IMG/VR virus record: IMGVR_UViG_2582581022_000007
Location: 1-48,575 of that record
DNA: 48,575 nt
Source: a virus
Taxonomy: Duplodnaviria > Heunggongvirae > Uroviricota > Caudoviricetes
Reading direction: 5' to 3' (one strand)
Shown piece by piece: positions 4,859 through 48,237 of the stretch. The translations under genes were made by a program, and so were the position numbers. The notes below the pieces were generated by a model. The model was not told the DNA's origin and did not search any database. It was given only the letters and a program-made list of their open reading frames with translations. Every line of letters starts with the position of its first letter. Positions within the stretch are counted from its first letter, which is position 1.

Positions 4859-4861
4859 TCA

Positions 4862-8620: not shown

Positions 8621-8631
8621 GGAGATAACCA

Positions 8632-31071: not shown

Positions 31072-31125
31072 TTAATAATCAGTGATTTAAGTGGATATAC
31101 TTCTTTTATCTACGCCAGGAGAGCA

Positions 31126-31142: not shown

Positions 31143-31194
31143 TTACTGAATCTTTACTGGTTTTATCTGGATTGCATAAAAAGGAAAAATAAAA

Positions 31195-31824
31195 GTGCCT
31201 GAGTTGTCTGTAATTATACAATGGATGAATCAATACCCTAAGACCGGCTGGCTATTGCTGTGTATCTATATTGCACTCGGTGTAGTTCGTCACAGAGTAA
31301 TTAATGCTGAATCTGGAAGTGTATTTCGTGGACTACTCAATCTTAGGAAGCGCCGGCTAGAGCAAATGCTGACACAGCCATATTTGAATAAAAATGCGGT
31401 CCGTCTGGCAAAGCGTGAGCTTCGTCAGCGCAGCCTTTATCGGCTCACAGGCTTGTATAATTATCGGCTGCAGGATTTGGCTGTAATAATGTGTGATCGT
31501 TATGGGTTGCGGGCTGGTTATCTCAAGCCGTGGCGTAACTGGCTCGAAGAACGGGATGGACGGATTGTGTTCAACAGGAAATGGCATTGTTTTCGCTGGC
31601 GTCTTTTTCTGGTAGGTCAGATTGTAAACACAGTTCTACTAATCTTATTCATTATGTATATAGTTTCTCATTCTTCGGCCGAAATGATCGCACCGCTTAT
31701 GTTACTCTTCATGCTTGTATGGTGGTTTCCTTGGCTAATGATCACCTCGGTACCTACCCCTAGGTGGACTCGCGAAATGGAAGTCTATCTTGAGAAATTT
31801 AACGCTGAACAGACCATGGTTTAA
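31195..31824 (+). CDS. hypothetical membrane protein
   Basis: 209 aa, several hydrophobic segments; GTG start with AAGGA RBS; flanked by palindrome copies 1 and 2. Confidence 0.45.
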   Translation: MPELSVIIQWMNQYPKTGWLLLCIYIALGVVRHRVINAESGSVFRGLLNLRKRRLEQMLTQPYLNKNAVRLAKRELRQRSLYRLTGLYNYRLQDLAVIMCDRYGLRAGYLKPWRNWLEERDGRIVFNRKWHCFRWRLFLVGQIVNTVLLILFIMYIVSHSSAEMIAPLMLLFMLVWWFPWLMITSVPTPRWTREMEVYLEKFNAEQTMV

Positions 31825-31961
31825 ACTGTTCTTTGTTACCATGCATTCAGAGTGAATTGTCAGAGTTTTGGAAGATTCCATCCTACGAGTAATACTCACA
31901 AGGTAATTCACATAATCAATAGGTTAAGTCATAAGCTTCTTGACCCTACATGAGAAGACGA

Positions 31962-31978
31962 ATTTTAGCTGCTAAAAG
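31962..31978. promoter_or_regulatory. KorB operator-like palindrome, copy 2 (ATTTTAGCTGCTAAAAG)
   Basis: One central and one terminal mismatch; flanking ~15 bp also resemble copy 1. Confidence 0.4.
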
Positions 31979-32401
31979 TTTGGGCATATTTGGACTTAAA
32001 TGCCACCGACATGATTCTAATAATTAAGCCAGTACCTAATGAGCCAAGAGAAGACAACTGTAAACGCCCCTTGGCTTAGACTTGCTTTCAGGAAAGCGAA
32101 TGCTTTTTATGGTCAGGGACAAGTAAGGGGATGAGCCATTGCATAACCATAAAACCAATTCGTTCTATGTCATTACAGATCGGCTTCAGTGATTTACTGG
32201 TGAGGTAGTATCACTGTGATCCGTTTTGCATAACGCTTACAGCTGCGCTACAAACAATAAACTATAATACTGTATTTTCAAAATCATCAATTTGAAGCAG
32301 GGTAATCGCGAAAAACCCTCGTAAGTGGCTGGTTATAATTCAATAAAGTGGATGATATTAAGACTTAAACTGCCACCATAATAGCTCGTGGATATACTAT
32401 T

Positions 32402-33373
32402 TTAAATATAAAATTCTTTCCTCACAGACGCTAAGGCCTTGGACACAGCCTGCTTTGTCATAGTTGTGTAGTGATTTTTTTCTAAAACCTGTGCGGTTTC
32501 AAACTGGTTAAAACCTTGGTGTTTTAATATGATTATTTTTTTCTTAGTATCAGTGAATTTGGAGTCAACCATTCGTCTGGCAATATTCCTAAGTTTATCT
32601 AGATCTGCTGGGGTTAAAGTTTGACCCTGCATCCACTCATGAAAATAGGTATCAATCAATATATCCCCTGTGTTTGCGTTAGCTTTATGCGGTTTAGCGC
32701 ATTGCCGTCTAAGCCTTATTAATTCTTTATTGAACTGTTCGAGAGACCGCTTTCCTTGTCTGTATTTGGGATTCCATAGACCATTGGTGAGTTTGGGCCT
32801 ATGGTCAGAACAATATCGATGACTAAGGACCTGTTTTTCATGAACGGGGAACTCATTATCGTTAGCAACAAATTCTGATATCTCACTGATCAACTTGGAA
32901 AATTCGGTTAGATTACCGCAGAACTCGCAATAACCGAGCTTACGCTGTGAATTTATAGTTACTCCTTTTGCAGGAGAGGATTTCTTCGGCCGCTTGGATG
33001 CGCACTCACTGACTAATTCAATAAGAGACTCAATCGTAGCGGTAAAGCATTTATCAAGAGAAGTTTGTTGATCTAAAGTCAGAACGAAATTACGCAAAAG
33101 AAGTCTTTGTGCCTGTACTACGACGTTTAAGCCCACTTTTTTAAGTACATCACTAAATCCTAGATTTACTCCAGAAATGTAGTCTTTATGACTTGGTGGC
33201 AGGGAATTTACATAAGCAGCTACTGCTGGATCAATAACTTCCTGTATGAGACGCAGTATTGGATACCTCCGTGAAAATATGGAGTACGGATAACTACGCT
33301 CTACAAATAATTTAATTGCAGCTGCAACTGTGAGGTCACAGCCTTCCCAGATAGTAATTTTCATGTCAACCAT
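32402..33373 (-). CDS. hypothetical regulator-like protein with Cys/His cluster and C-terminal HTH-like segment
   Basis: AT-rich ORF divergent from alpA; CEFCGN...CSDH cluster; start set at first ATG not overlapping alpA; no convincing RBS. Confidence 0.4.
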   Translation of the reverse strand: MVDMKITIWEGCDLTVAAAIKLFVERSYPYSIFSRRYPILRLIQEVIDPAVAAYVNSLPPSHKDYISGVNLGFSDVLKKVGLNVVVQAQRLLLRNFVLTLDQQTSLDKCFTATIESLIELVSECASKRPKKSSPAKGVTINSQRKLGYCEFCGNLTEFSKLISEISEFVANDNEFPVHEKQVLSHRYCSDHRPKLTNGLWNPKYRQGKRSLEQFNKELIRLRRQCAKPHKANANTGDILIDTYFHEWMQGQTLTPADLDKLRNIARRMVDSKFTDTKKKIIILKHQGFNQFETAQVLEKNHYTTMTKQAVSKALASVRKEFYI

Positions 33374-33450
33374 TTTAGCCAATGAATAGGTTTTAGCAAG
33401 TGGTAATGCTTGGCATTGTATAGGCCTGATTGGAAACAGGAGGAAGGCAG

Positions 33451-33681
33451 ATGCAAACAAAGGCACATAGCACGCTCATTAACAGAAAAACACTTCTGGA
33501 AATGATCCCATTGTCAGCCCGCACTATTTATAACCTTGAACAGCGAGGCGAGTTTCCTCGCCGTATAGCACTTACTAGTCGAAATGTTGCATGGCAGTTA
33601 TCCGAAGTGGAACAGTGGATTGCGGATCGTAAATCAGCAATGTTTAAAGCGGCCAGACCCGGTGTTGTTTTAGGTAGGTAA
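33451..33681 (+). CDS. alpA: AlpA-family transcriptional regulator (prophage CP4-57 regulatory protein type)
   Basis: ~76 aa with LLEMIPLSARTIYNLEQRGEFPRRI HTH; AGGAGGAAGG RBS before ATG 33451. Confidence 0.75.
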   Translation: MQTKAHSTLINRKTLLEMIPLSARTIYNLEQRGEFPRRIALTSRNVAWQLSEVEQWIADRKSAMFKAARPGVVLGR

Positions 33682-33686
33682 CAGCA

Positions 33687-34544
33687 ATGTCATTGAACAT
33701 AATGGAAGCATTTGAAGCTAAGCCACAACCAATTGATTACGTCTTGCCTAATTTGGCTATTGGTACTATCGGAGCGATTGTTTCTCCGGGAGGCGCTGGA
33801 AAGTCAATGCTGGCATTACAATTGGCTGTGCAGATTACTTGTGGTGTAGATCTTTTAAACTTTGGTGAATATCCGACTGGGTTGGTGGCATATTTACCTG
33901 TGGAGGACTCTGAAACCATCGTTCACCATCGTTTATATGCGTTGGGAAAATATCTAACAGCACGTCAGCAGCAGATTGTAGCTGATAAGCTACTGGTCGA
34001 ACCTTTGGTAGGGAAGTGTCCAAATATTTTCTTGCCGGATTGGAGCAACTTGATCAATGAAGTTTCAAAAGGTAGACGTTTAATAATTTTGGATACTCTT
34101 CGCCGTTTCCACCAGGAGGATGAGAATAATAGCGCAGCAATGTCCAAAGTCATTGGAAAGCTAGAAGGTATTGCTGCTGATACTGGATGTTCGATTATAT
34201 TTCTACACCATTCAAACAAAGGCGCTGCCACGATGGGGGTTGGTGATATACAGCAGGCAAGCAGGGGTAGTAGCGTCCTGGTTGATAATATACGGTGGCA
34301 ATCTTATCTGGCGGGCATGACCGCCTTGGAAGCGAAGACGTATGGTATTTCTGATGATGTTCGAGGTCAATTTGTTAGATTTGGAATAAATAAAGTAAAT
34401 TATGGAGAACGTGCGCCAGATCGTTGGTTACAGAGACATGAGGGGGGAGTATTAAAAATAACGGCGCTCAGCTCGAAGAATAATAAAAAGCTTACTAAAG
34501 AAAGAACATCTACCTGGAGTGGCGCTGACAATGACAACTGGTAA
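33687..34544 (+). CDS. RecA-fold P-loop ATPase (AAA_25/RepA-like)
   Basis: Walker A IVSPGGAGKSMLALQLA, Walker B-like RLIILDTL, IIFLHHSNK; typical partner of alpA in integrative islands. Confidence 0.6.
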   Translation: MSLNIMEAFEAKPQPIDYVLPNLAIGTIGAIVSPGGAGKSMLALQLAVQITCGVDLLNFGEYPTGLVAYLPVEDSETIVHHRLYALGKYLTARQQQIVADKLLVEPLVGKCPNIFLPDWSNLINEVSKGRRLIILDTLRRFHQEDENNSAAMSKVIGKLEGIAADTGCSIIFLHHSNKGAATMGVGDIQQASRGSSVLVDNIRWQSYLAGMTALEAKTYGISDDVRGQFVRFGINKVNYGERAPDRWLQRHEGGVLKITALSSKNNKKLTKERTSTWSGADNDNW

Positions 34545-35313
34545 TAAAGTGGCACCCACAAGTACAGCTTGGCAAGCCCGAGTAATTCTGTACCAGCCAA
34601 GCCAGCGTCCTAAGGAGGTGAAGGGACAATGGATGGAGACTAGTTTTGGTCGTTGTCGTGTTACCGGACGGCTCGGACAGCGTCATGCCGATATCGTAGA
34701 GACAATATTATATGTTGCCGAGCAACGTCGTGAAATTTCTGATGGTGGAATCGAATTATTAGTAGATCCAGCGAAAGTACGCCGAACGCTATCCGATGCA
34801 CAATACAGTTATGGTCGTATACAGAAATTGCTTTTAGATCTGCGCGTCGCAACAGTTGAAATTATAACGCCAGAGCTGGAGAAAAGCGGCGACTGTATAA
34901 TAGGGGGACTGATCGATCATGTAGTGCCATCACCTATGACGCGTCCAGATCCTTTGACTGGGGGAGAACGCCGTTTATGGCGTGTCCGTCTGGGTGTTGC
35001 ATTAGCGATGTTACTCAAAAAAGATTTGCCATTTTATTATCATCCTGGCCCCATAGCTCGGCTACAACATGGTATTAGCCAGGCAGTCGCTCGTCATGTC
35101 TTAACCCATAGTAATAATCCTTTAGGAGGGTGGTATATGGATACGTTGATATTAGCAGTATGCGGTGAAGGAACGAGTAATATGACTTTACGTAACTATC
35201 GTCGGAGATTGAAAGAAGATTCCGTGCAATTGCTGGAAATTGGAATTGATTTGAACGGTTCTAGGATAAAACGTGTCACAACGGCCCGATATTGTGTCAC
35301 AACGGCCCGATAG
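34519..35313 (+). CDS. hypothetical protein, possibly replication-associated (3' end overlaps iteron array)
   Basis: 264-aa ORF; last ~40 nt lie within 21-bp iterons; start codon uncertain (GTG 34519 or ATG 34531). Confidence 0.35.
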   Translation: MALTMTTGNKVAPTSTAWQARVILYQPSQRPKEVKGQWMETSFGRCRVTGRLGQRHADIVETILYVAEQRREISDGGIELLVDPAKVRRTLSDAQYSYGRIQKLLLDLRVATVEIITPELEKSGDCIIGGLIDHVVPSPMTRPDPLTGGERRLWRVRLGVALAMLLKKDLPFYYHPGPIARLQHGISQAVARHVLTHSNNPLGGWYMDTLILAVCGEGTSNMTLRNYRRRLKEDSVQLLEIGIDLNGSRIKRVTTARYCVTTAR

Positions 35314-35356
35314 CGTGTTATAGCGGCCCGGTAGCGTGCTACAGCGGCCCGATTTT
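35273..35356. repeat. iteron-like array, 4 tandem 21-bp repeats (GTGTCACAACGGCCCGATATT and variants)
   Basis: Units at 35273, 35294, 35315, 35336 share GTG-yyAyAgCGGCCCGrTa core; followed by AT-rich region with GATC sites. Confidence 0.7.
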
Positions 35357-35564
35357 TTACTATTCAGCAGTATTTACAGGATCGTTCAGGATCTACAGTC
35401 TTTGAAATCACCTGCCTGAGCAGGCGCTTTCAAATCTAGAATCGGCCAAAGGCCGATGGTTGTACGCCAGAAGAAGAGATTACTTACTCGTTTGGTATAT
35501 TGACACTTGAGGTAGGTTTTATGACATATGAGGTACGCCCCTAGCTTTAGGCATAGGGAGGAAG

Positions 35565-35581
35565 ATTTTAGCCGCTAAAAT
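35565..35581. promoter_or_regulatory. KorB operator-like perfect palindrome ATTTTAGCCGCTAAAAT, copy 3
   Basis: Identical 17-mer to copy 1; ~400 bp upstream of mobC-like gene. Confidence 0.5.
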
Positions 35582-35970
35582 CTGCAATGCACATGCTTTG
35601 ACAATGTAAGTAAAAAAGTGCATGAGAAAATAAAATATTTCTTACAATATATCGAAACATAAATACAGTTGGTGGACGCCCATTTATAACTACTAAAGGT
35701 CATTTTCAAAAGGGAGAAATATAGTTTCCTTGCAAGAAACACATTTGCTGCAGATCTTTACCCGAGTAATCCTATATTAATACGCTAAGAAAACACATCC
35801 TGTACACTGAAATACACATTGATGTGCACAGATATACTACGGCAACAGGAGGGCAGGACATGTAAAGTAGGCCCACCGCTACGGTGTTCCAACTTTACCA
35901 CTCCCTATTCGCCGCATCGCGGCTCAAGGGCGTCCTGCTCTGCCAGGCTACCGCCTGTATGGAGAGCTAT

Positions 35971-36324
35971 ATGAAAGTTACTCAGACTAGAAAAAATAGT
36001 ACGCCAATAAAAGTTTATTGTTTACCCGAAGAAAAAATTCTCATCCAAGAAAATGCAGAAGCATCTGGATTAAGTGTTGCCTGTTTTGTTCGTAGAGTTG
36101 CAATGGGTTATCAGGTTGATTCTATCGTAGATATAAAACAGGTTAATGAACTTAGCCGAGTAAACGCTGATCTTGGAAGACTTGGCGGATTACTTAAATT
36201 ATGGCTCGCAAATGATCCTCGAACAGTTGATTTTTCACCCACCCTGATAAGAACCTTGCTTGCGAAAATAGAATCAACTCGGCAAGAACTAAGGAACATT
36301 ATGGATAAAATCTTGGATAAATAA
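35971..36324 (+). CDS. MobC-like ribbon-helix-helix mobilisation accessory protein (putative)
   Basis: 117 aa from ATG 35971 (GGAGAG RBS); IKVYCLPEEKILIQENAEASGLSVACFVRRVAMG resembles relaxosome RHH proteins. Confidence 0.45.
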   Translation: MKVTQTRKNSTPIKVYCLPEEKILIQENAEASGLSVACFVRRVAMGYQVDSIVDIKQVNELSRVNADLGRLGGLLKLWLANDPRTVDFSPTLIRTLLAKIESTRQELRNIMDKILDK

Positions 36325-36405
36325 ATGTGTGGTTTCCTATATACCTGCGTCTGTTAAAAGACAGTGTGTTAAATATTACTGAACTGATGAAAAAGAGGTG
36401 AGCAA

Positions 36406-37200
36406 ATGAATTTAATGTTCCGAGTGGTTTCATTACAAAGAGGGATTTTAGCCGCTAAAAAAGCTTTAATAGTTCCTTTCGTGGCGTCCGTCATGGCATT
36501 ACCGGTTAAGGCCGGAATTCCCGTTATTGATGGCACTAATGTGGTTCAGACCACAATCAGCGCAGTTAACAACGTTCAGGCTGTGACTAAACAGATCCAG
36601 CAGTACCAGACGCAGCTGCAGCAGTATGAAAACATGCTCAAAAATACCGTCGCACCTGCGGCCTATATCTGGGATCAGGCCAATTCAACCATCAACAAAT
36701 TGTTGCAGGCGCAGGACACTCTTAATTACTACAAAAATCAGGCCGGGAGTCTTGATTCATATCTGAAACGTTATCAGGACGTGAATTACTACCGCTCATC
36801 ACCGTGCTTTAACAGTAATGTTGAATGTACTGCAGATGAAATCAGCGCACTGCGTAAAGCAGAACAGAACAGCTCTGAGGCGCGTAAAAAGGCCAATGAC
36901 GCCGTTTTTAAGGCTCTTGATGAACAGCAAGAAACACTGCAAAGCGATGCTGATAACCTGGCAGATTTGCAAACTCAGGCAACCGGCGCACAAGGGCAAA
37001 TGGAAGCTATTCAGGCCGCTAACCAGCTTGCAAGTGCTCAAACGAACCAGCTGCTGCAAATCCGCTCGCTCCTGGTAGCCCAGCAAAACGCTGCAGCAAC
37101 ACTGGCACAGGCTCAGGCAGATAAAGAATCACAACAGATAGCCGCTGATGAAAAAGCGTTAGCTGGAGAGAATACACCAAGCCCGAAGCGAATTTGGTGA
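36406..37200 (+). CDS. trbJ: TrbJ/VirB5-like type IV secretion protein
   Basis: Signal peptide, Q-rich coiled-coil (QIQQYQTQLQQYENMLKNT), ~260 aa, followed by small lipoprotein and TrbL-like gene as in IncP trbJ-trbK-trbL. Confidence 0.6.
   Translation: MNLMFRVVSLQRGILAAKKALIVPFVASVMALPVKAGIPVIDGTNVVQTTISAVNNVQAVTKQIQQYQTQLQQYENMLKNTVAPAAYIWDQANSTINKLLQAQDTLNYYKNQAGSLDSYLKRYQDVNYYRSSPCFNSNVECTADEISALRKAEQNSSEARKKANDAVFKALDEQQETLQSDADNLADLQTQATGAQGQMEAIQAANQLASAQTNQLLQIRSLLVAQQNAAATLAQAQADKESQQIAADEKALAGENTPSPKRIW
36445..36461. promoter_or_regulatory. KorB operator-like palindrome, copy 4 (ATTTTAGCCGCTAAAAA), inside trbJ 5' end
   Basis: 16/17 palindrome; encodes ILAAK within the putative signal peptide. 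Confidence 0.4.
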
Positions 37201-37211
37201 GGAAACGCAGA

Positions 37212-37385
37212 ATGAAAGATAATCTTTTGATTGTATTTATTCTGATCAGTTTATTGGCCATATGTTCTTGCGATAAAAATGATAAAGATTGTTTATCGAC
37301 GCCAGATAATAAATTTGATGAAAATAAATACGATAAATGTGCTCTACGGAGTAATAATAAACCAAGCCCTAAACGAGAATGGTAA
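37212..37385 (+). CDS. trbK: small lipoprotein, TrbK-like (entry exclusion) by position
   Basis: MKDNLLIVFILISLLAICSC signal/lipobox-like N-terminus, 57 aa, between trbJ-like and trbL-like genes. Confidence 0.45.
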   Translation: MKDNLLIVFILISLLAICSCDKNDKDCLSTPDNKFDENKYDKCALRSNNKPSPKREW

Positions 37386-38779
37386 TCATGAAAATAGCAA
37401 GTAAGCTCACCTTTCTAGGTATCATAATTTTCTTTTCTATAAATGCCTATGCTGGTCAATTAGATAGTAGCGGGCTACTTGATTCTTTATTAGATAAGTT
37501 TCAACAAGTAGCCAGTACATGGACAACAGTAATTGCTGACTATGCAAATTGGCTCTTCTGGGGGCTGGTATTAATAAGTATGGTTTGGACATTTGGTATG
37601 ATGGCAATGCAAGGAGAAGGGTTGACAGGCGTACTTGCTGAAATAGTTCGCTTTTTTGCCGTCATTGGTTTTTTTTATTATCTTTTAATCAACGGCCCAT
37701 CCATATCGCAATCCATAATTAATTCAATGAGGCAACTTGCAGCAAACGCTTTAGGAATAAGTACTGGTATTTCGCCCTCAAGCATAGTTGATATGGCGTT
37801 TGCGATATTAACAAAGGTCAGTTCAGCCGCATCAATTTGGTCGCCAATGATATCCACCATTATGATAACAGTAGCGATAATCGTTTTGGTAGTGATGTCC
37901 CTTATAGCGATAAATATGCTAATCATGTTGGTTTCTGCATGGGTGTTATGTTATGCAGGAGTTATATTGCTTGGATTTAGTGGTTCGAAATGGACCTCTG
38001 ATATAGCAATTAATTACTTACGAACTGTTTTATCGATTGGCATTCAATTATTCACGATGACATTAATTATTGGGATTGGACAATCATTTATAGATCAATA
38101 TTTTTCTCTTATTAAAGATGATGTTCCTGATCTTAATAGTCTTATCGTTTTGCTTCTGGCGTCAATTATCCTGTTAGTATTAACGAATAAGCTACCACTG
38201 TTGTTATCAGGTGTTGTAGGAGGAGCTTCTTTACAAGGGATTGGTGGATTTGGGGCGGGTATGATTACTGGCGCTGCCGCTACTGCCATCAGCGGTGCTG
38301 GAGCAATTGCAATGGGGGCATCAGCTCAAGTCAGCGGCGGAGCCTCTGCATTAAAGGCAGCGTTCGAGTCTGCGCAAGCTGCCATGGCCGAGGAATCTGG
38401 TTCAGGTGGTGGAGGCGGTTCCGGTGGAGGATTTGGCGTCGGGGAAGATACCGGTTCTGTAGATACTTCTGGAGGCCAACCCTCAGGCAGTTCCGGTGGT
38501 TCGTCAGCATGGAGCAGTTCAGTTAGCTCCAGCGGAGGAAGTCAGGGGTTTGCTTCATTCTCACGAGCTGGCCGCATGGCAAGCCATATGGGAAGCATCA
38601 TGGCCAACGGAGCTGCTGAGTACCAGAAAATGAAGCGAAGTAGCAATTCTTCTCGTGTCCAACAAACTATTGGAGGGGAGTTGGCGACTCAGATACGTAA
38701 GCAGACAGCTACTCATCGGGATAACCGCGAACATGATGATTTTGCCGATGATAGCTTATCGGGTAATAATAAATCTTGA
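37379..38779 (+). CDS. trbL: TrbL/VirB6-like polytopic membrane protein
   Basis: 466 aa, many transmembrane segments, Gly/Ser-rich C-terminal tail (SGSGGGGGSGGGFGVGEDTGS). Confidence 0.65.
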   Translation: MVIMKIASKLTFLGIIIFFSINAYAGQLDSSGLLDSLLDKFQQVASTWTTVIADYANWLFWGLVLISMVWTFGMMAMQGEGLTGVLAEIVRFFAVIGFFYYLLINGPSISQSIINSMRQLAANALGISTGISPSSIVDMAFAILTKVSSAASIWSPMISTIMITVAIIVLVVMSLIAINMLIMLVSAWVLCYAGVILLGFSGSKWTSDIAINYLRTVLSIGIQLFTMTLIIGIGQSFIDQYFSLIKDDVPDLNSLIVLLLASIILLVLTNKLPLLLSGVVGGASLQGIGGFGAGMITGAAATAISGAGAIAMGASAQVSGGASALKAAFESAQAAMAEESGSGGGGGSGGGFGVGEDTGSVDTSGGQPSGSSGGSSAWSSSVSSSGGSQGFASFSRAGRMASHMGSIMANGAAEYQKMKRSSNSSRVQQTIGGELATQIRKQTATHRDNREHDDFADDSLSGNNKS

Positions 38780-38860
38780 ATCATGTGCGTCAGTTAACGA
38801 GGTAGCGTGAGCTGACGCTTTCACTGTGCGAACTTTACTCCTGCAATTCAAAGGAAAAAC

Positions 38861-39325
38861 ATGTCCAGGACTCCCTATACACGGTTACGTATTGAGGGCT
38901 TCCGCAAAGCAGAGGCTTCCCTGAGACTTGAAGGAATGGACCCCAGTGGTACGCCACTGTACGAGTCCATTAAGGCACGTATTATTTCAGGTGAACTGAC
39001 GTATGAGCAGGGGCGTTCAGAGATTCTTACATACTACACAAAAGCAGATACTGACGGGCCTGTGACAGTGGGAGAGATGCTGGTAGAGGAATTTTTAAAA
39101 CCGCTGAACATGTCTCATGATGAACTGGCGGAAGCTATGGGTATCTGCAAGCAGTATATTGACGATATTATCTGCGGTTTGCGTCGTCTTACGGATGATG
39201 AGGCTCGCGTTCTTGCTGTCATATTTGGTACTGATGAGGACTTTTGGAGTAACCTTCAAAAGTTGCAAGATTGCAAGGAAAACCAAGTAAGTAGCCTTCG
39301 TCCACTTCGTGTTAGACCATGCTAG
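38861..39325 (+). CDS. HigA-like XRE-family HTH protein with N-terminal VbhA/FicA-like SxxxEG motif region
   Basis: C-terminal VGEMLVEEFLKPLNMSHDELAEAMGICKQYIDDIICGLRRLTDDEARVLAVIFGTDEDFWSNLQ matches HigA antitoxin HTH pattern; N-terminal ASLRLEGMDPSG has the (S/T)xxxE(G/N) motif. Confidence 0.55.
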   Translation: MSRTPYTRLRIEGFRKAEASLRLEGMDPSGTPLYESIKARIISGELTYEQGRSEILTYYTKADTDGPVTVGEMLVEEFLKPLNMSHDELAEAMGICKQYIDDIICGLRRLTDDEARVLAVIFGTDEDFWSNLQKLQDCKENQVSSLRPLRVRPC

Positions 39326-39514
39326 CTGCTCTTCACATGTCATGAATGTTAGAATATTTGTTCAAAGTCATTTCTTCAGAGCAAAATTTTTAATAGCGGA
39401 TAGAAAAATGCAAGGTATGTTGGAAAAATAAACGAAGCGAGTACGCAAACGTCTTGAAATGCAGTAACATCATTCCGCCACACTGGCAGTTGGCTAACGG
39501 CGAAAGGAGTTCAT

Positions 39515-40747
39515 GTGAGCCAAGAAGATGATGATAAGTATCCAGCTAGCGCCGTATCCTCATGGAGCGGCTTCGTTTATCAAGGGAAAATTGCATTATA
39601 TCACTCCCTCAAGATTATTCACGATGGCGATCTAGACTTTGAGCTTCAGCTAGACAGTAGTGACGACTTCGCTATTTATAAAAATGGAAAACTACACACA
39701 GCCCATCAAGTCAAAGCGAAGATAAGTAAATATCGAAGTGGTTACACCAAGGCGCTGGAACAGTCTACTTTAATCGAACACGACAAAATCCAAGGGACAA
39801 CGCGTTACTTCCATGTATCTGTTCCTCTAAATAATACGGACGATCATAGAGGCGCTAGCGGAGAAATAGTAAAATTCTATCGCTATGGGGATAATTATTA
39901 TTGTGGTTTGGGTGAAATTGAAGGGCTTACCAAAGAACTAATAAAAAAAATATGTAATAAGCAGCACATCATTGTCAGTGATAACCTTATAAATTTTAAC
40001 TATTGTTTACTTTCTGAAAAAATCAGCACCAAGGCAATATACAATCATAAATTAAATCAGGTTGGCGGAATTTCAGAAAACAGAGCAGCATATGAGGGTC
40101 GTATCAAGGCCAGAAATATTCTAGAAGACCTGCTAACCGAAAACCCCTATCAGAATAGGGACTACTATGCAGTTGCATTAAAGGCCAGGCTTCAAACTCA
40201 TCTGGAAGAGAGGTTGGATCAGGCGCTTCCAACAATGAGTGACACTACTTACGAGAGAGCTAGATGTCTGTGTGAGCACATTCGCGAAACTCATATCAAT
40301 GAATTGAAAGCCCTATGCCAGATGATGAAGCCCTCCGAGCGATTTCAAGACGTTCAGACGAACGACATCAGGCGATACACCAAGCTTATCCAGGCTATTT
40401 CGGTGGAGCCTATATTCAACCACCTCCCACACTACCTTGACAGCGAAAATCGATTTTACGTACCTACCGCTCTTGATGTAGATGAAAGCGAAGAGTGTGA
40501 GTTTGACATGACCCGTGAAATGAAAAACAACGGGGATCTGCTGAGACTACTTTTTGAGTATAACCATCTAATCGCCAGCAAAGCAGAAGCCTCATTCACC
40601 TTTAATACAAAATTTACAAACTCAGATGACTTCGACAACAAGCAGACCACTGAAAAGCTCGAAAGCAACATCACCAAGTCGCTATGCATTAGCGTGATAA
40701 CAAAAGACGATGCGGAGGAACGACTGAATGATAAAGCAACTCATTGA
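39515..40747 (+). CDS. candidate defence effector, LmuA-like (N-terminal PD-(D/E)xK-like nuclease motifs)
   Basis: GTG start with AAAGGAG RBS; GFVYQGKIALYHS...DLDFELQLDSSDDF...HQVKAK suggests D...D...(E/Q)xK nuclease; first gene of coupled operon. Confidence 0.45.
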   Translation: MSQEDDDKYPASAVSSWSGFVYQGKIALYHSLKIIHDGDLDFELQLDSSDDFAIYKNGKLHTAHQVKAKISKYRSGYTKALEQSTLIEHDKIQGTTRYFHVSVPLNNTDDHRGASGEIVKFYRYGDNYYCGLGEIEGLTKELIKKICNKQHIIVSDNLINFNYCLLSEKISTKAIYNHKLNQVGGISENRAAYEGRIKARNILEDLLTENPYQNRDYYAVALKARLQTHLEERLDQALPTMSDTTYERARCLCEHIRETHINELKALCQMMKPSERFQDVQTNDIRRYTKLIQAISVEPIFNHLPHYLDSENRFYVPTALDVDESEECEFDMTREMKNNGDLLRLLFEYNHLIASKAEASFTFNTKFTNSDDFDNKQTTEKLESNITKSLCISVITKDDAEERLNDKATH

Positions 40748-41393
40748 TGAAGCACTTGTTGCACATGGCTTTGTTAGTAAACGCGACTTGGACAACACAA
40801 GCTTTTATATTCGCGAGTCTGGATCTGCTATCAGGTTTGCAGTTCTATATAATCTTGATGACCTTCCTGACCCAGCCGAATTGAATAATAGAATCAATCA
40901 TCTTGCTCCTAGTGAATTTCTCAGAAACCCAAGCTTTAAGAAAAACTGCGACTTGATTTGTATTTATCGTCTTGATGTTCTGGCCAATTTCAAAGATCAC
41001 GAAGAAGAGATTTTCGCAATTGAAGAAGATCCGCACTTCTATAAAAAGTATGTTCTCTATTACAGTATCGCGGAAGAAAGTGCACTCACTAATTTCACCT
41101 ACGACAAACTGGTATCTGTTATTGCTGACAAAAAAGAATTTCTTGAATACAAAGAAAATCCTCTTAACGCCACACAATACAGCTTTGCGGCGAAGACCTT
41201 TATCAAGCTTCCTTTTTTAGAGTTACCTAACCATCAAGAAAATCTTGTGTCCTTGAGGTTACAGGCAGCAGAGGCCGTTGCACAAGCCAGCCTGAACGAT
41301 ACGTATTTGACTATCCAGAAAGTCACAGATAAAAACGCCGACGAAATTATCAAGGAAATGATTAAAAATGAACTGGCAAATATCCAAGATTGA
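40728..41393 (+). CDS. small middle-gene protein of the operon (LmuC-like by position)
   Basis: 221 aa; overlaps upstream gene by 20 nt and downstream gene by 26 nt; GGAGGA RBS. Confidence 0.45.
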   Translation: MIKQLIDEALVAHGFVSKRDLDNTSFYIRESGSAIRFAVLYNLDDLPDPAELNNRINHLAPSEFLRNPSFKKNCDLICIYRLDVLANFKDHEEEIFAIEEDPHFYKKYVLYYSIAEESALTNFTYDKLVSVIADKKEFLEYKENPLNATQYSFAAKTFIKLPFLELPNHQENLVSLRLQAAEAVAQASLNDTYLTIQKVTDKNADEIIKEMIKNELANIQD

Positions 41394-43701
41394 AGTCTCT
41401 AGCTTCAAAGCTTTCAAGCATATCTATTTGGATCTTGACAAGTCGTCTTTGCTAACTCTGGACGGCCCTAACGGTTATGGTAAAACAAGCATATTCGACG
41501 CAATCGAACTATTGCTTACCGGCCAGATCAGTCGAATACAAAATCTATTCAAGACATTACTAACCAAGAACAAGAGAGACTACGCGGACAATCTTTTCTG
41601 GAATAGTCGCTCAGGAGAGAACGATCTCTGCATTAAGATTGAATTTACTAATGATGGTCGCAAACTTGTCTTAGCTAGACATTGCCAAGCTGCAATATTC
41701 AAAAAACCAGTAAACAATCGTGCAGACAAATACGAAAATTTCAAGCTTTATGAGCTGCCAGAATTCGAATCGTCTGAATTCACTAAGATCAATCTGCGCG
41801 ATAATAATTTCCTTGATGAAATTTTCGGAAAGAATTTCAGGGAAAACTTCTCCTTTCTTAACTATTTGGAGCAAGGGCAAAACCGGCTGTTACACACTCG
41901 GGTAGACGAACGGAAGGATAAACTAGGAAACCTATTTAATATCAGTGATATCGAAGCCGAGATTGAAAACTGCAACACTGTATACAGCAAACTCACAAGG
42001 TACATCAATAATCCTGAACGCACGGCAAAAGCTGCATCTCTTATTGAAGAAATAGCCATCCTAAAGGACACATTGCAGGCAGTGGCTGGGAACATTAAGT
42101 ACAAAAAACTCTCGACGACTGATGTCCAACCGGGGTGGGACAAGGAGATAATGTTCTCTACGTATTCGTCAGTGGACCATGCAGCCTACCAGGAATCAGT
42201 TCGTAAGATTATTGCCCTTCTACCACTCAAAGCCACGATAAAAACTAGGGTCCATAACGAGAGAATTGATGCCTACATCGGTCGTAATGAGGAATCTCTG
42301 AGAAGTCTGGCGCAGTTTGGTAAAGACCTGGGCAAGCTTGATGTGCTTGACGCTATCAAGAAAGGGATTGATGAGTTAGAACGTTCAGCAAGTATCATTA
42401 AACGTGGTGCTACGGTGATCAAGCTCGAAGAAGCTCGTTCATTACAAGGTTGGGCGGGTGGGCGTCTTGAGTGGTTTGAGTTACAAATTAATTCTCGAAA
42501 CAGCTTACAAGTAAAAAGTAGCGCCAACACGAACGTTGTAGCCGAATTGGAACGTCTAAAAAGGCAGTTACTTAGGGAACATAAAAAGTCTTATCCCGAC
42601 GAGCAGTTGTGCCCTCTCTGTGGTGCTGACTGGGAAGATCACAAATTAATGGCAGATGCTATTGAAGCAAGAACTAAGCAGATCTCTGAATCATTAGGAC
42701 AGGACGGTAAGGACTTAGTTAACCTTATCGCTGCTATGGACGCAGAGCTGAAACTTATCGACTCCTTTATACAAGACAGCCTGAAACTCCTTACGCCTAC
42801 ATTTGAATCGAACCTTCATGTAGGGCTGACCAGAATTAAGCTTCGGCTCCCGGCAATAACCCAAGTACTGGAAAAGCTGCAAAGCGAAAATATTCAATTT
42901 ACTGATTCATTCACGGAAATTGATGACTTAGTAGATGAGCGACTTGAAAAGCTCAAAGAGATTCTAAGAAATAAAAAACAGGTTGAGGCTGATGCCTTAA
43001 CGCTGCCGGAGGACTGGCGAGAAACCATAAATAGCTCTTTTAAAGATCTGCAGGACTTCTACATAGTCACGGCTGAAGACCTAAAGGGTAAAGAGCATTA
43101 CATATCGATTAAAGCTAACGAGGCTCAAAGTTCTAGGCTCCAAACTTGTATTAAAGATCTTAATCTTATCGAAAAAGAAACCATGGCAGCTCAAAAAGCA
43201 CAAGGTAAAATCGAAAAGCTCCGCAACACTTTGAAAAAGACCGAGCAGAACTATACTGACCAAACAATTTCGGCTATTGAGTTCATATTCCACATTTATA
43301 GTGGTCGGCTGATCCAAAACTACCAGCGTGGCCTGGGCCTGTTTATTGAGAGCCGCGAAGGTACGCAACTGAGGTTCCTGACTGCTGAGAAGTCTGAACA
43401 CGACGCAGTCATGTCCATGAGTTCAGGTCAGGTGTCTGCGCTCAGCCTTGCTTTCTTCCTCGCGCTCAACAAAGTCTATGCACGGGTTCCTCTCATATTG
43501 ATTGACGACCCGTCGCAATCACTGGATGAAGTAAACGTTGCTTCGTTGACCGATCTACTCCGTTGCGAACTCAAACATTGCCAGTTGGTTGTCTCATCGC
43601 ACGAGGACGATATCTCGGCCTATATGCGCTACCGGTTCGACAGAGCCGGTTTGACAACAAGTTCGCTCAACATGCAGCTTTTGGCGAAAGAAGCTTCGTA
43701 A
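41368..43701 (+). CDS. SMC/Rad50-like ABC ATPase with mid-protein CxxC (zinc-hook-like); LmuB-like
   Basis: Walker A GPNGYGKTS (res ~33-41), CPLCG near res ~415 in long charged helix-rich middle, C-terminal SGQVSALSLAF signature, LILIDDP Walker B, SSHED. Confidence 0.75.
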   Translation: MNWQISKIEVSSFKAFKHIYLDLDKSSLLTLDGPNGYGKTSIFDAIELLLTGQISRIQNLFKTLLTKNKRDYADNLFWNSRSGENDLCIKIEFTNDGRKLVLARHCQAAIFKKPVNNRADKYENFKLYELPEFESSEFTKINLRDNNFLDEIFGKNFRENFSFLNYLEQGQNRLLHTRVDERKDKLGNLFNISDIEAEIENCNTVYSKLTRYINNPERTAKAASLIEEIAILKDTLQAVAGNIKYKKLSTTDVQPGWDKEIMFSTYSSVDHAAYQESVRKIIALLPLKATIKTRVHNERIDAYIGRNEESLRSLAQFGKDLGKLDVLDAIKKGIDELERSASIIKRGATVIKLEEARSLQGWAGGRLEWFELQINSRNSLQVKSSANTNVVAELERLKRQLLREHKKSYPDEQLCPLCGADWEDHKLMADAIEARTKQISESLGQDGKDLVNLIAAMDAELKLIDSFIQDSLKLLTPTFESNLHVGLTRIKLRLPAITQVLEKLQSENIQFTDSFTEIDDLVDERLEKLKEILRNKKQVEADALTLPEDWRETINSSFKDLQDFYIVTAEDLKGKEHYISIKANEAQSSRLQTCIKDLNLIEKETMAAQKAQGKIEKLRNTLKKTEQNYTDQTISAIEFIFHIYSGRLIQNYQRGLGLFIESREGTQLRFLTAEKSEHDAVMSMSSGQVSALSLAFFLALNKVYARVPLILIDDPSQSLDEVNVASLTDLLRCELKHCQLVVSSHEDDISAYMRYRFDRAGLTTSSLNMQLLAKEAS

Positions 43702-43856
43702 AAGCCACCTTGGCCACCTATTAGAGCGGGTGGCTAAATTTAGTGTTTCACTACAAATAGCATAAAAGGATGCAAAAATTCGGCGAATTTATTCCACGTG
43801 TTTTTTTAAATTCAATGTATGTTAAAATTGTGTCTATTTTATATCAGGATTGTCAA

Positions 43857-44744
43857 ATGAACTCAATTGTTACAGCTAAGGCATTGTCAGCAAGGAAAAA
43901 GTTTGCAGGCCGTCAATGGTTCTACGATTTTAGAGAACTAACTCAGCGTATTGATGAACAAAATGCCCAAAAAATTGCAGATAGCCTTTCCGTTCGATAT
44001 TCAAAACTAACAAAATTTTGGGATAAGGAAAAGAATTCAGAATGGATGTGCAGAATTTATTTATCGGCAAAAATGGTGATGAACGCCACAATACAGATTA
44101 ACTCCATGGAGTTTGCAAAAGAACGCAATATCCGTATCACAACTCCTTATTTAACATATTATTCCCTCCTTTCACTTCTTCGAGGAATCGTCTACACATT
44201 ACCAGAAGTGGAATGGGAGAATGGAAAGCTTATTGAGATATCGCATCACAAAGCTATAAATTTGGCATTCGACCATCTTTCGGCATTTAATAAGGACTTA
44301 TCTGAAGAGTTTAAAAATATCACGCTCACAGCCAAGGCATATCGTGAATTAATTTCGTATCGCTCCCCAACGTCGGGTGACTCTATAATTGAATCAATAA
44401 GCATCGAAGCGATTGCCACATTGCTAGCTGAGGTGGCACAATTTAACTCTGAAATTTTGGAGTCATCCATTATTAAGAAAGCAGATGGCGCTTCGTTTGA
44501 GTTTCTTAGTAAGTATATAAAAGAGTTATCTGGCATTACTATCGAAGGTATCAATTTCTTCGATCAAGAAGATGCTTATAGGTTAAACTATCTTCGCCGA
44601 AAATACCCTCTACCTCCAAATGTTCTTCATGTCATGACGGAAGGACATGTAGAGGATTTTTTTGGGGCATGGCTACCTAGTGAAGAAATTGAAGGTGCTT
44701 TTGACCCAGATGAAAATTGGGGAGTTATTTTTGATATCCCATAG
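43857..44744 (+). CDS. hypothetical protein (orphan gene between two defence loci)
   Basis: 295 aa from ATG 43857 (AGGA RBS); follows hairpin after previous operon; no motifs I can assign. Confidence 0.4.
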   Translation: MNSIVTAKALSARKKFAGRQWFYDFRELTQRIDEQNAQKIADSLSVRYSKLTKFWDKEKNSEWMCRIYLSAKMVMNATIQINSMEFAKERNIRITTPYLTYYSLLSLLRGIVYTLPEVEWENGKLIEISHHKAINLAFDHLSAFNKDLSEEFKNITLTAKAYRELISYRSPTSGDSIIESISIEAIATLLAEVAQFNSEILESSIIKKADGASFEFLSKYIKELSGITIEGINFFDQEDAYRLNYLRRKYPLPPNVLHVMTEGHVEDFFGAWLPSEEIEGAFDPDENWGVIFDIP

Positions 44745-45064
44745 TTAATTAATTGCGAAGATTATTTTTTTTGTTAATCCAGAACTAAATTGGAATGAAA
44801 AAATATGGGGTTGGGTAGTAAATAGAGCCAATTCCCCATATCCTTCATGGCAAGAATGTTTAAGCGGTATATAACACGTTTATGGACATTCATGAGTTAT
44901 GATTTTTATAAATTAGCATTTCTAAAATCAACTTGGATATTGTAAACCTAGGTCAGTTGACCAAATCTATTACGACACTATACTATACATTTGTCTTTCG
45001 TCTAAATGCCGCTAGGTCAATATCAACGGTATTGACCTTTGCTTCGAATGAATCTTTATAAATA

Positions 45065-45916
45065 CTATGGGTAAATTAAATTGTGCTTAGTATATAAGAA
45101 CTGGACTACACCTTGGGAGTTTAAAATTCCATGAATAAAGATTGAGAACCAGTTGTTTGGTGTGCTGTACGACTGATCATATCTATTTAATGCATCATTC
45201 AAATATCTCGAAAAGTCAGCAATGGTTGGAGTATTGGCTAATGGTAACGTTTGAATTTTTAAGCTTGGGTTTTGTGTCGTTGTATCCCATTCACCTTCTA
45301 GCCAATTAATAATTCCTGATGGGAGAACAACTTTCTCCGTGTGGTATTTTATGCTGTCTATTTCTAAGTGCTGTGGTAAAACATAAGCTATTTCAATTTT
45401 AGCTTTTGGAAATTGAGGGTCTTGAGTAATGTTACACGACAAAAGCCTCTGATTAAGAAAAACGTCATAATAAGGATGTAGTATCCTTTTATTTCCATCC
45501 GTTAAATTCGTTTTTCGTTTGCTGTTGCAATCACAAGCTGGAACTAAATTTTTTGAATACACAGAAAAGCAAGGGTAGTCATCTTTAGGAAACAGGTGAT
45601 CAAGGGTTCCTGTTTTTAATGAACCGCACATTGGGCAAACGTTTGGTGAAGATGCTCTTAAATCATCAATGAACTTTAAGTCAGTTGGTGGTGAAGCGTA
45701 GTGCTTCTTCAATGCTATTGATAAATCATTGGTAATGTTGACGTTCGCAACTGATAGTGCGTTACCATTATTAGCGTCATAGTCTTGGTATCCATTTAAA
45801 ATGATCTGTAACTCATTGTGTAAATGCGGATAACTTGTTCTATGAAGCCTGTCTCTTTGAGACGTTGTCGTTATTTTCTCAATATCATTTACCGCAGGTA
45901 AAGGAAGCTTTTTCAC
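45065..45916 (-). CDS. HNH endonuclease (PtuB-like)
   Basis: CPMCGS...TLDHLFPK...PACDCNSKR HNH/zinc-finger motifs; GTG start 2 nt after upstream ATPase stop with GGAGGA RBS. Confidence 0.75.
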   Translation of the reverse strand: MKKLPLPAVNDIEKITTTSQRDRLHRTSYPHLHNELQIILNGYQDYDANNGNALSVANVNITNDLSIALKKHYASPPTDLKFIDDLRASSPNVCPMCGSLKTGTLDHLFPKDDYPCFSVYSKNLVPACDCNSKRKTNLTDGNKRILHPYYDVFLNQRLLSCNITQDPQFPKAKIEIAYVLPQHLEIDSIKYHTEKVVLPSGIINWLEGEWDTTTQNPSLKIQTLPLANTPTIADFSRYLNDALNRYDQSYSTPNNWFSIFIHGILNSQGVVQFLYTKHNLIYP

Positions 45917-45918
45917 AA

Positions 45919-47385
45919 TTAATCCTCCATCATGCGTTTTAATCGCATTAAGGCTGATAGCGAAATTTCATTGCCTAGCTGTTCTTCTACGTCAGAAAAG
46001 CTCTTGCCTTTCACTCTATCGTAGAGTTTTTCTGAAAGTCTTATTTCAGTATCTTCCTGAAAGATAAACTGTGAAATAGAATCTACAGTTGCTCCAAATG
46101 TCGGTAACCTCGGTTTATCAGTTACGAGCCTGTGATCTGATATTGAGAGAACAGCTACCTGTTCATTTGATACTTCACGGACAAAATACGCCGAATGAGT
46201 TGCTATAAGTGCCTGTGAGCCTGTTTTTTCTAATAGGAAGTCTAGTAGTCCTATAAAATCAACAATCATGTTAGGATGCATGTGCGTTTCAGGTTCATCC
46301 ATCAATACAAACGTACCGTTTTCAATGAACAAGCAACTCAGTAAAGCAACCTTAAAGAAGGTTAACTGCCCGCTACTAAGCGGGTAGAGTCCGTCGCCTC
46401 TTTTTAATTTAGGGTCTAGGTTGTGCTCAATACTAGCCCAACGCATCAAAGAATCTTGCTCTCCGTTTCCTTGTAAAAAACTCCATAGATTGATTGTTCG
46501 TTCATTTTTTAACTGTAAAAAGATATTTCTAGGGTCTAATCCTGCTTGGTAAAGTGAATCCAAAAAAAGGTTTTTTCGAGTATTTTCACCAATCTCATCT
46601 GCACTTCTCGCTAATTGTACGAGGCAATCACCAATATTATGTGTCCCTTTTCGAGTCAGATTTAACCGTCTATAGTAAAGCTTCTGTGTCGCTCTTCTTT
46701 CAGGGGGAAACGTGTTTGAGGTTTCACCAGGTGTCGCTATTGCGATAATACGATTGATTAGAGGTCGTTTACCGTCATCGTCAACCAGTGACAACCCTTT
46801 ATCTTTATATTGCAGTGCCCCTCGGCAAAATGCTTTAAGCGACTCGCTTTTACCAACACCATTTTTACCTATCAACACAAAAATTCGCTTCGGTATGATA
46901 CTTTGGTGGTTGTATTTTAATGACAGTTGATGAAGCTCTTCAAAACCATCTAACTGGAACTTAAGTTCTAACGAGTTGGATATAGCTACATCACTTTTTA
47001 GCTCTTCTCCAATAATAATACTGTTAGCATTGTGATAAGCGAAGAACGGCTCGGAGTTACGCATGAAACCAAGTTTAAATACTTCAGTATCAATGGCTTT
47101 TCTTACCCATTTTTCATCAGTGTCTTTATATTGAGAAAGATCATTTACTGTACGTAAGAATAGTTCGGCTCCTTCGCGGCCAAACCCGTCGTAAAGGTCT
47201 CGGTAGCTTTGCATGTCAGGTAACAAAGTAAAAAATGGAGGAAGGTCCTCTGAATAAACAACCTCTTTATCAGCCTTTTTTAGGTACTCCCATAGCGTTT
47301 CTTTTTTTTCATAAAAGAGAAGCTCTTCCTCTTTGTTTTCTATGTTATCTGGAGCCATAAAGCCAATTAACATTGAGCCTTCCAT
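45919..47385 (-). CDS. ABC-type/AAA_21-like ATPase (PtuA-like) with ~170-aa N-terminal extension
   Basis: Walker A IGKNGVGKS at res ~173-180, signature LSSGQLTFFKVALL, Walker B FVLMDEPETHMHP, H-loop IATHSAYF. Confidence 0.75.
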   Translation of the reverse strand: MEGSMLIGFMAPDNIENKEEELLFYEKKETLWEYLKKADKEVVYSEDLPPFFTLLPDMQSYRDLYDGFGREGAELFLRTVNDLSQYKDTDEKWVRKAIDTEVFKLGFMRNSEPFFAYHNANSIIIGEELKSDVAISNSLELKFQLDGFEELHQLSLKYNHQSIIPKRIFVLIGKNGVGKSESLKAFCRGALQYKDKGLSLVDDDGKRPLINRIIAIATPGETSNTFPPERRATQKLYYRRLNLTRKGTHNIGDCLVQLARSADEIGENTRKNLFLDSLYQAGLDPRNIFLQLKNERTINLWSFLQGNGEQDSLMRWASIEHNLDPKLKRGDGLYPLSSGQLTFFKVALLSCLFIENGTFVLMDEPETHMHPNMIVDFIGLLDFLLEKTGSQALIATHSAYFVREVSNEQVAVLSISDHRLVTDKPRLPTFGATVDSISQFIFQEDTEIRLSEKLYDRVKGKSFSDVEEQLGNEISLSALMRLKRMMED

Positions 47386-47665: not shown

Positions 47666-48237
47666 TTAAGGGCGTTTCATTCTAATTCCATTAATTGGGA
47701 TGGTAATCCTCCCATTTTTAACCGCAATTAAACGTAGAAGTCTAGCGGCCATTAATGGTGGTTTTCCTCCATTGGCTTTGTGTGGCCGTTCATAATTGGA
47801 AAAACTAAAACCATTTAGTGGCATAGTCTTACACTTCTTCAAGTGTATCAAATAAATGTTTGCTGACCTAGCTGTACATGATCGTTTTGTTATGTAGTTC
47901 GATGTAGGCATTTTGCTGTGGTTTGCCAGGCTGAGTGTACTCAATACGGATCCCATGCATTTTCGACCATTTTGTAAACCCTTGGCTGATTAACTCAGGC
48001 CCATTGTCAAAGCGTATCGCTAGCAGTTTTGTTCGCCATTCGAGCAATTGATTTAGTGTTCTTATCACTTGCAGTGCCAGCAATGAGAACTCTGCTTTAA
48101 TCGGCAAACCTCGTTTGAAGTCGTCGATGACGTTGAAGAACTGATAGCTGCGTCCATCCGCTAGCAGGTCAGCGCTATGTAAAGTGTATAGAGATAAGTT
48201 GGAGGTACAAGGTGGATAGAATTACATCGGAACCAGC
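47666..48237 (-). pseudogene. IS3-family transposase (DDE integrase core) remnant, N-terminally truncated and frameshifted
   Basis: Two overlapping frames: ...FFNVIDDFKRGLPIKAEF...RFDNGPELISQ...QPGKPQQNAYIE and ...NYERPHKANGGKPPLMAARL; in-frame stop at 48238, no start. Confidence 0.65.

Follow-up and report, generated by a model that had tools for sequence, protein, structure and literature searches.

What could be the role of a gene that stands on its own between two defence operons and to which no motif could be assigned? The question is raised by a gene of 295 amino acids (aa) at 43857..44744 (+) in the viral record IMGVR_UViG_2582581022_000007, of which we analysed the whole stretch of 48,575 nucleotides (the window). 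This gene, hereafter the orphan, lies between a Lamassu operon and a convergent ATPase/HNH pair. An earlier note on this DNA, written from the letters alone, had left two options for it: either a protein that gives defence or abortive infection as a single gene, or an accessory factor serving one of the neighbours. The accessory option is contradicted by our comparison of loci: the same Lamassu operon is found in E. coli without the gene, and 52 homologue loci have no conserved neighbour. The single-gene option, on the other hand, gains circumstantial support from the stand-alone character of the family, from its placement in prophages and among defence genes, and from a predicted HEPN-like core. 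Our favoured reading is that the orphan is an autonomous, horizontally mobile single-gene anti-phage candidate of the abortive-infection type, with sensor and effector in one chain, a reading whose chances we consider evenly balanced. A specific RNase chemistry of the predicted protein is doubtful, and we rate it well below an even chance because the histidine that defines HEPN domains is absent.

Neighbourhoods and spread of the orphan family

If the orphan served one of its neighbours, or needed a partner, its relatives should tell. Genes were called in 52 homologue loci; neighbours within five genes were compared by BLAST (E <= 1e-5) and the two nearest genes on each side by phmmer (E <= 1e-3). 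Neither comparison revealed, in the 52 loci, a neighbour common to different lineages, and the shared neighbours detected by BLAST occur only within two groups of close genomes, the roseobacters and Acetobacterium. As read from gene order, the orphan belongs to a family that has no conserved partner gene and travels alone. Moreover, a co-directional neighbour at a gap of less than 60 bp was found upstream in 9 of 46 cases and downstream in 2 of 50. The absence of a conserved partner, together with the small number of close co-directional neighbours, argues against a toxin-antitoxin pair. Indeed, the tightly linked conserved partner that marks type II systems was not found, most intergenic gaps being larger than 60 bp, and a conserved small upstream open reading frame (ORF) acting as antitoxin was rejected, as none is common to different lineages. 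The sole neighbour similarity across lineages concerns restriction-modification genes: in the Serratia P2-like prophage (L010/L011) and in Acetobacterium/Firmicutes metagenome-assembled genomes (MAGs; L042/L043/L052) the homologue adjoins homologous genes of the type IIG/BsuBI-PstI type, fused into 826 aa in Serratia and split into 554 aa and 308 aa in Firmicutes. This adjacency may be a coincidence within defence islands.

Where do the homologues sit? In Rahnella inusitata and Serratia fonticola the prophage that harbours them is P2-like, and they lie in its variable region beside the portal gene; in Serratia this region is bounded by the replication gene gpA and the portal. There they have as neighbour either an FRG-domain protein or a restriction-modification enzyme of type IIG (Eco57I/BsuBI). 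The region beside the P2 portal is a described defence hotspot of P2-like phages (PMC9122126, PMC13586616). At the defence loci of P4 satellites that carried only genes of unknown function, six of eight randomly chosen cases gave protection against phages (PMC13586616). The Rhodobacter capsulatus homologue lies at a prophage end and adjoins an NgoMIV restriction-modification system and an integrase; others adjoin a 675-aa AAA_15 ATPase (Microbulbifer), an integrase (Janthinobacterium) or a recombinase (an Acinetobacter resistance plasmid), and in one viral contig the homologue stands between RecT/exonuclease genes and a DUF3800 gene with a 1373-aa helicase-nuclease. A 32%-identical homologue on plasmid pRspN324d of Rhizobium sp. 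N324 (L061) is located 3 kb from a second, unrelated ABC-three-component (ABC-3C; Lamassu-like, DUF3732) operon, and it is the sole homologue within 3 kb of an ABC-3C operon. At this plasmid locus (positions 1576-8867) pentapeptide-repeat and nucleotidyltransferase genes lie between the operon and the homologue, whose start overlaps with a 96-aa ORF.

We scanned 141 proteins encoded within two genes of the homologues. The families that recur among them are AAA_21, AAA_15 and AAA_13 ATPases (PDC-S06, AriA-like, MADS mad2/mad3), as well as type II methyltransferases and restriction enzymes, HamA/HamB (Hachiman), TIR_2, NERD, DUF6932, PDC-M63 and PDC-S42, and restriction-modification systems lie near the homologue in at least 4 loci. 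Judged by their gene content, the regions around the homologues appear defence-rich.

The family itself is widespread in phylogenetic terms and rare in numbers. At E <= 1e-3, 231 homologues were collected among 90% clusters, most of them of about 296 aa, and the family profile matches 374 clusters at 50% identity, 164 of these at E <= 1e-30. Nearly all members are single-domain proteins of 280-305 aa whose source annotation is solely 'hypothetical protein', and they come from Alpha-, Beta- and Gammaproteobacteria, Desulfobacterota, Cyanobacteria, Verrucomicrobia, Bacteroidota, Firmicutes, Armatimonadota and a Saccharibacteria MAG. We counted 47 family loci in 185,579 species (one genome each), which is a lower bound from a pattern-based scan, and by tblastn a homologue is present in 3 of 72,556 plasmids. 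A megablast of the locus itself, which detects only roughly >=85% DNA identity, gave no match in 5,426 complete E. coli genomes, nor did it against plasmids. Such a sparse and phylogenetically incoherent spread has, as far as distribution can tell, the pattern of horizontally transferred accessory genes. The Janthinobacterium and metagenome relatives share 76-80% amino-acid identity as against ~73% DNA identity, and the excess of the former over the latter in these closer relatives indicates that the family is under purifying selection.

The earlier observation that no motif can be assigned to the protein holds at the level of sequence searches, since we obtained no match in Pfam (E <= 0.01), NCBIfam release 20 or PHROGs, and none with the 5027 models of PADLOC-DB v2.0.0 (0 families at E <= 0.01). 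Searches of PDB sequences with two family profiles returned nothing relevant, apart from a chance match to HscB at E = 0.021. One 798-aa representative (P0135) is the sole fusion or read-through in the family: its family domain occupies residues 506-798, after some 500 unrelated residues, and Pfam finds no domain in the N-terminal 486 residues. By eye, this N-terminal part might contain an EVE/PUA-like stretch and a PD-(D/E)xK-like 'D...EAK' motif, both unmatched in Pfam; the protein is perhaps an artefact of gene calling, or else a domain fusion that is informative.

Predicted fold, possible mechanism and alternatives

The protein was modelled as a monomer with AlphaFold2 from a 45-sequence alignment. 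The model is confident (mean predicted local distance difference test, pLDDT, 92.2; predicted template modelling score, pTM, 0.92), and structure prediction, proposed in the earlier note as a check, points to a HEPN-like core. Residues 3-52 form a helix, a beta-hairpin and two helices; long core helices follow at residues 57-89, 93-112, 130-142, 146-169 and 184-208; a small alpha/beta unit at residues 218-270 makes up the C-terminal part, and an extended acidic tail, for which the pLDDT is still ~88, occupies residues 271-295. Within the core (approximately residues 57-208) the model displays the four-helix up-and-down bundle of HEPN topology that characterises the superfamily. The orphan protein is predicted in this way to possess a HEPN-like four-helix core flanked by N- and C-terminal elements specific to the family.

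Which residues does the family keep? Among 69 members, down to 26% identity, R66, Y101, R163 and Y168 are invariant (69/69), and H130 is retained in 67. Conservation of at least 90% is also found for W63, K72, Y98, Y102, R109, H130, E164, S167, P171, D236, D239, R242, G263, D267 and W272. The segment R163-E-L-I-S-Y168, which in the family reads R163-E-x-x-S-Y168, has the minimal Rx4H spacing and a polar residue after the arginine, with a tyrosine in the place of the histidine (i+5). In the model, this R163-Y168 motif would fall at the junction that leads into the last core helix, approximately at the usual site of the motif in HEPN domains. The C-terminal elements are acidic: over the family, residues 209-270 average -4.8 in net charge, and the last ~25 residues -5.4.

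How might such a protein act? We infer that the invariant basic and aromatic residues (R66, K72, Y98, Y101, Y102, R109, H130 and R163-E-x-x-S-Y168) could form a phosphate- or nucleic-acid-binding catalytic pocket. This pocket would derive from the HEPN Rx4H site, with Tyr168 at the usual spacing of the histidine, and His130 would possibly supply the missing imidazole. The family-specific N- and C-terminal elements are presumed to hold the protein inactive, and the acidic C-terminal region (net charge of about -5 in the last 25 residues) may shut the site as long as no phage component is bound, the tail acting perhaps as a pseudo-substrate. Once released, the protein would cut or block RNA (tRNA, mRNA or rRNA) and the infection would be aborted, as with the solo HEPN protein HepS. 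A bolder proposal, to which we give little weight, is that the family represents a remodelled HEPN scaffold in which the invariant tyrosine stands for the catalytic histidine, with R66, R109, H130 and the tyrosine cluster behind it. Immunity by this single protein would then involve a chemistry unseen in HEPN RNases, for instance a covalent tyrosine-nucleic-acid adduct or the modification of a nucleotide or tRNA, and an acidic tail mimicking nucleic acid would autoinhibit the protein until displaced by a phage factor.

Several observations weigh against the defence reading and its HEPN component. A Foldseek search of the model against the PDB gave nothing significant, the best HEPN match having E = 0.33, and a search against BFVD likewise gave nothing significant. 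The HEPN models of Pfam are not matched by the orphan protein even at E = 10, and a regular-expression search for R.{4,6}H, the HEPN Rx4-6H motif, found it nowhere in the 295 aa; when Pfam was run on the 45 aligned members at E <= 10, only scattered noise appeared, with HEPN_Toprim_N weakly matched in 2 of 45 (E = 0.045). The association with defence genes is qualitative: genes located 6.5-10 kb from the homologues match PADLOC models too (SspF, HerA, type I specificity subunits, mad5), so that no clean enrichment figure can be given. Some loci, among them the metagenome locus L001, look ordinary; in Aphanizomenon, for instance, the homologue has 6PGD on one side and small ORFs on the other. 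The family is moreover almost absent from sequenced phages, with a homologue in 0 of 50,697 phage records by tblastn and in 2 of the 2.9 million IMG/VR contigs.

These points have to be set against the alternatives. The orphan might be cargo of mobile elements with no anti-phage role, such as a toxin or addiction factor that acts alone, a protein giving immunity against a polymorphic toxin, or a hitch-hiker devoted to anti-defence or host manipulation. The patchy spread, which looks like horizontal transfer, the integrases, recombinases and insertion sequence (IS) elements that adjoin homologues, the lack of recognisable defence neighbours at some loci and the Imm-NTF2 and SMI1/KNR4 immunity-type genes found within ~6 kb of the homologue in two loci are all compatible with this. 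However, an invariant set of Arg, Tyr, His and Lys residues on a predicted fold of nuclease type suggests an enzyme rather than an immunity protein that only binds, the family has no conserved toxin partner, and defence cargo typically shows the repeated placement beside the P2 portal, restriction-modification systems and further defence genes that is seen here. We regard this explanation as rather unlikely. A catalytically dead, HEPN-derived sensor of a ligand or nucleotide, or a scaffold, acting by binding (it might, for instance, sequester a factor of the phage or the host), appears improbable. HEPN domains of the Sacsin type and those associated with nucleotidyltransferases are of this non-catalytic kind; the missing Rx4-6H motif would fit, and a base might find stacking partners in the many conserved aromatic residues. 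Yet R163 and Y168 are invariant at the exact Rx4H spacing, and H130 nearly so, which speaks for retained chemistry rather than decay, and a stand-alone defence protein needs some effector output.

Could the orphan still belong to one of its neighbours, as an accessory or regulatory part of Lamassu LmuACB upstream or of PDC-M01, the Septu-like ATPase and HNH pair, downstream? It is physically located between the two, the distant Rhizobium plasmid homologue lies near another ABC-3C/Lamassu-type operon, and a 3-kb metagenomic contig (L007) keeps the orphan/PDC-M01 arrangement at 98.3% identity. This contig is nevertheless from the same island and does not count as independent evidence. In E. coli RM10042 the LmuACB operon is present at 97% identity without the orphan, identity stopping at the terminator and other genes following after 43734; a hairpin and an AT-rich gap part the orphan from LmuB; and with respect to PDC-M01 the orphan is convergent, separated by a 320-bp gap. 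Neither Lmu nor PDC-M01 families recur among the neighbours of the 52 loci, PDC-M01 being absent among the top 25 PADLOC families listed for them, so that the co-occurrence analysis with both operons that the earlier note had called for gave no conserved association. Such a role is therefore very improbable. Finally, the idea that the ORF is spurious, or that the gene is a housekeeping or IS-derived one, can be considered effectively refuted. An IS3-type rve fragment does lie nearby (47868-48107), but the protein has no similarity to any transposase or housekeeping family, homology of the kind that the earlier note had named as fatal to its suggestion. The rarity recorded above in species and E. 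coli genomes does not suit such a gene, and with a fold predicted at high confidence and with strong purifying selection, a spurious ORF is excluded.

Should the favoured reading of a single-gene anti-phage protein be right, the orphan would be a compact 0.9-kb one-gene immune module missed by PADLOC v2.0.0, Pfam, NCBIfam and PHROGs. It would also extend the solo-HEPN paradigm of HepS to a family with a tyrosine in place of the hallmark histidine, and thus test how far HEPN catalysis depends on the Rx4-6H dyad. If it proves not to be protective, it is still a well-folded, widely scattered family carried by mobile elements.

The gene, its island and the spacer

The earlier description of a well-formed 295-aa ORF with its own ribosome-binding site is borne out. 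The open frame listed for the window runs from 43770 to 44744 (+), which would give 324 aa, and the ATG at 43857 gives 295 aa and a stop. In 45 of 45 aligned homologues, whose length is about 296 aa, an M-N/S-S-I start is found at the position of this ATG, and the DNA similarity to distant homologue loci has its first base exactly at 43857 and its last at 44742-44744. Because the N-termini of the homologues align there and the DNA similarity begins exactly there, we take 43857 to be the correct start codon. The longer version starting at 43770 was rejected, as no homologue reaches upstream of 43857. A Shine-Dalgarno-like AGGA is read at 43846-43849 (+), 7 nt 5' of the ATG. Further upstream, the element TGTTAAAAT at 43820-43828 (+), noticed by eye, is a possible extended -10 of a promoter belonging to the gene; a consensus scan of the + strand upstream of the orphan gene found no full -35/-10 promoter.

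What brought the gene to this place? From position 1 to ~29450 the window is an epsilon15-like prophage whose structural genes are ~90% identical to those of Salmonella phages PAT1, 65FD and epsilon15; a tailspike-like gene and a set of lysis genes (holin, CHAP and DUF2514) are present in it as well. From 29560 on it is an integrative island with an integrase, a RepA-type helicase, NikA/TraJ, TrbJ, TrbL and a HigA-like helix-turn-helix protein, followed by the Lamassu operon, composed of LmuA (Cap4-nuclease and CTD1 domains), LmuC (MComp1) and LmuB (SMC-type ATPase), the stop of the SMC-like LmuB being at 43701. The prophage directly abuts the integrase gene of the island (29881-31071). Since the E. 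coli island sits right after guaA, prophage and island may have integrated in tandem at one attachment site.

According to a BLAST comparison with the window, the island backbone (29560-43734) is 97.2% identical to the island beside guaA in E. coli O43 RM10042 (L059), and this guaA-adjacent backbone is also found in other E. coli strains. The match with RM10042 ends at 43734, just before the orphan gene and inside the hairpin that follows LmuB. This terminator-like hairpin (43710-43737, +; 10-bp stem, -15.7 kcal/mol, z = -1.7), which had already been noticed between the SMC-like gene and the orphan, is by this alignment the right end of the backbone shared with E. coli, and hence the left junction of the segment of cargo that includes the orphan. 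In RM10042, LmuB is followed by unrelated hypothetical genes and a Fic/DOC gene. As E. coli identity stops at 43734 and other genes follow there, the orphan and the PDC-M01 pair would be alternative cargo. The comparison of the two islands shows the orphan, at the level of aligned DNA, as a separate piece of cargo that entered a guaA-type integrative island behind its Lamassu terminator. The window and RM10042 thus form a clean case of cargo swapping directly downstream of a fixed Lamassu operon in such an island, and a natural comparison for the study of defence-cargo exchange.

On the other side of the orphan, the convergent ATPase/HNH operon described in the earlier note was found as expected, with an HNH-like gene at 45065..45916 (-) and an ATPase gene at 45919..47385 (-). 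PADLOC assigns them to PDC-M01B (E = 2e-35) and PDC-M01A (E = 3e-51) of its candidate system PDC-M01, and the pair (45065-47385, -) also resembles Septu PtuA, though less strongly. Nothing close to it is present in the 5,426 E. coli genomes, the sole match being 221 bp at 68% identity. Just past this operon lies the remnant of an IS3-family transposase (47666-48170, -), with an rve/rve_3 fragment in a 79-aa ORF at 47868-48107, and this remnant suggests that IS activity had a part in shaping the cargo junction on the right.

The AT-rich spacer between the convergent genes (44745-45064) measures 320 bp and contains both palindromes previously pointed out in it. It has no E. coli counterpart, the locus and spacer have no Rfam match, and its small ORFs (28-42 aa) find no support, none being conserved. 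Distant homologue loci share no flanks with the orphan gene, DNA similarity being confined to the gene, and because none of them has these flanks the palindromes are, on comparative grounds, not part of the orphan gene unit. The first palindrome, GGTCAGTTGACC (GGTCA-GT-TGACC), at 44951-44962, has z = -1.1 and is indistinguishable from chance; the second is GGTCAATA-N7-TATTGACC at 45015-45037, and CTAGGTCA precedes each of them. Window-wide, two matches of GGTCA-N0-15-TGACC were reached in 9 of 100 shuffles, and three copies of CTAGGTCA, the third being at 47864-47871 in the IS remnant, in 6 of 100. The CTAGGTCA/TTGACC half-sites are within chance expectation, and the palindromes were rejected as operators or cassette ends because the motif counts are within chance.

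A hairpin formed by the second palindrome (45014-45038; 11-bp stem, 3-nt loop), located 27 nt past the stop of the HNH gene, stands apart. On the + strand it reaches -14.1 kcal/mol (z = -3.4, 0 of 200 shuffles) and is followed by UUUGCUU; on the - strand it reaches -11.9 kcal/mol (z = -2.4). It is probably a terminator, perhaps bidirectional, between the convergent units, and save for this hairpin the palindromes are probably incidental. A 21-nt inverted repeat (44936-44956/47863-47883) bracketing PDC-M01 was also rejected: with a complementarity of just 81% it resembles many of the chance pairs listed, and its right arm (47863-47883) falls within the IS3 rve remnant.

Comparison with known systems

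To what known system does the orphan come closest? By analogy, its nearest functional counterpart would be HepS (HEPN Solo), and its nearest structural ones the minimal HEPN toxins (HepT/UPF0332). HepS, from the Salmonella Gifsy-1 prophage, is a lone HEPN protein that senses the phage tail tip protein J and executes abortive infection by cleavage of tRNA (PMC13043305). Like the orphan, it is a single protein without a partner gene, it belongs to the accessory cargo that a prophage or mobile element carries in Enterobacteriaceae, and it has a helical core of HEPN type, which in the orphan is predicted. The same logic might be expected for the orphan, with a protein made constitutively, inactive until a phage protein binds and then cleaving RNA. 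The difference lies in the motif: HepS has the canonical R100-x4-H105, and H105A abolishes defence (PMC13043305), whereas the orphan family has R-E-x-x-S-Y and no Rx4-6H.

The toxins of HEPN/MNT pairs (HepT/DUF86 and UPF0332; PDB 2hsb, 7ae2, 5yep, 8xdj) are proteins of ~130 aa that are always paired with an MNT antitoxin gene. In contrast, the orphan has 295 aa, with ~55 extra N-terminal and ~90 extra C-terminal residues, and it has neither the partner, nor the histidine, nor a match to the HEPN models of Pfam; with the family used as query, no relevant PDB chain was matched by sequence at E up to 10. The HEPN proteins AbiV, AbiD/AbiF (Abi_2), AbiU2 and ApeA and the C-terminal HEPN domain of AbiA carry the canonical motif and are covered by Pfam and/or PADLOC models, none of which matches the orphan.

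With regard to its carriers, the family resembles the cargo of the P2-like prophage hotspot (Rousset et al. 2022, PMC9122126; PMC13586616), where the Rahnella and Serratia homologues sit beside defence-type genes. Unlike that cargo, the orphan of the window is carried by a guaA-type integrative island, and its family is not modelled in PADLOC v2.0.0. We do not file it in a named HEPN family, because it has no sequence match, no defining motif and no partner gene. Provided that its function is as we propose, the orphan would be a solo HEPN-type defence candidate lying, by sequence, outside any described HEPN family.

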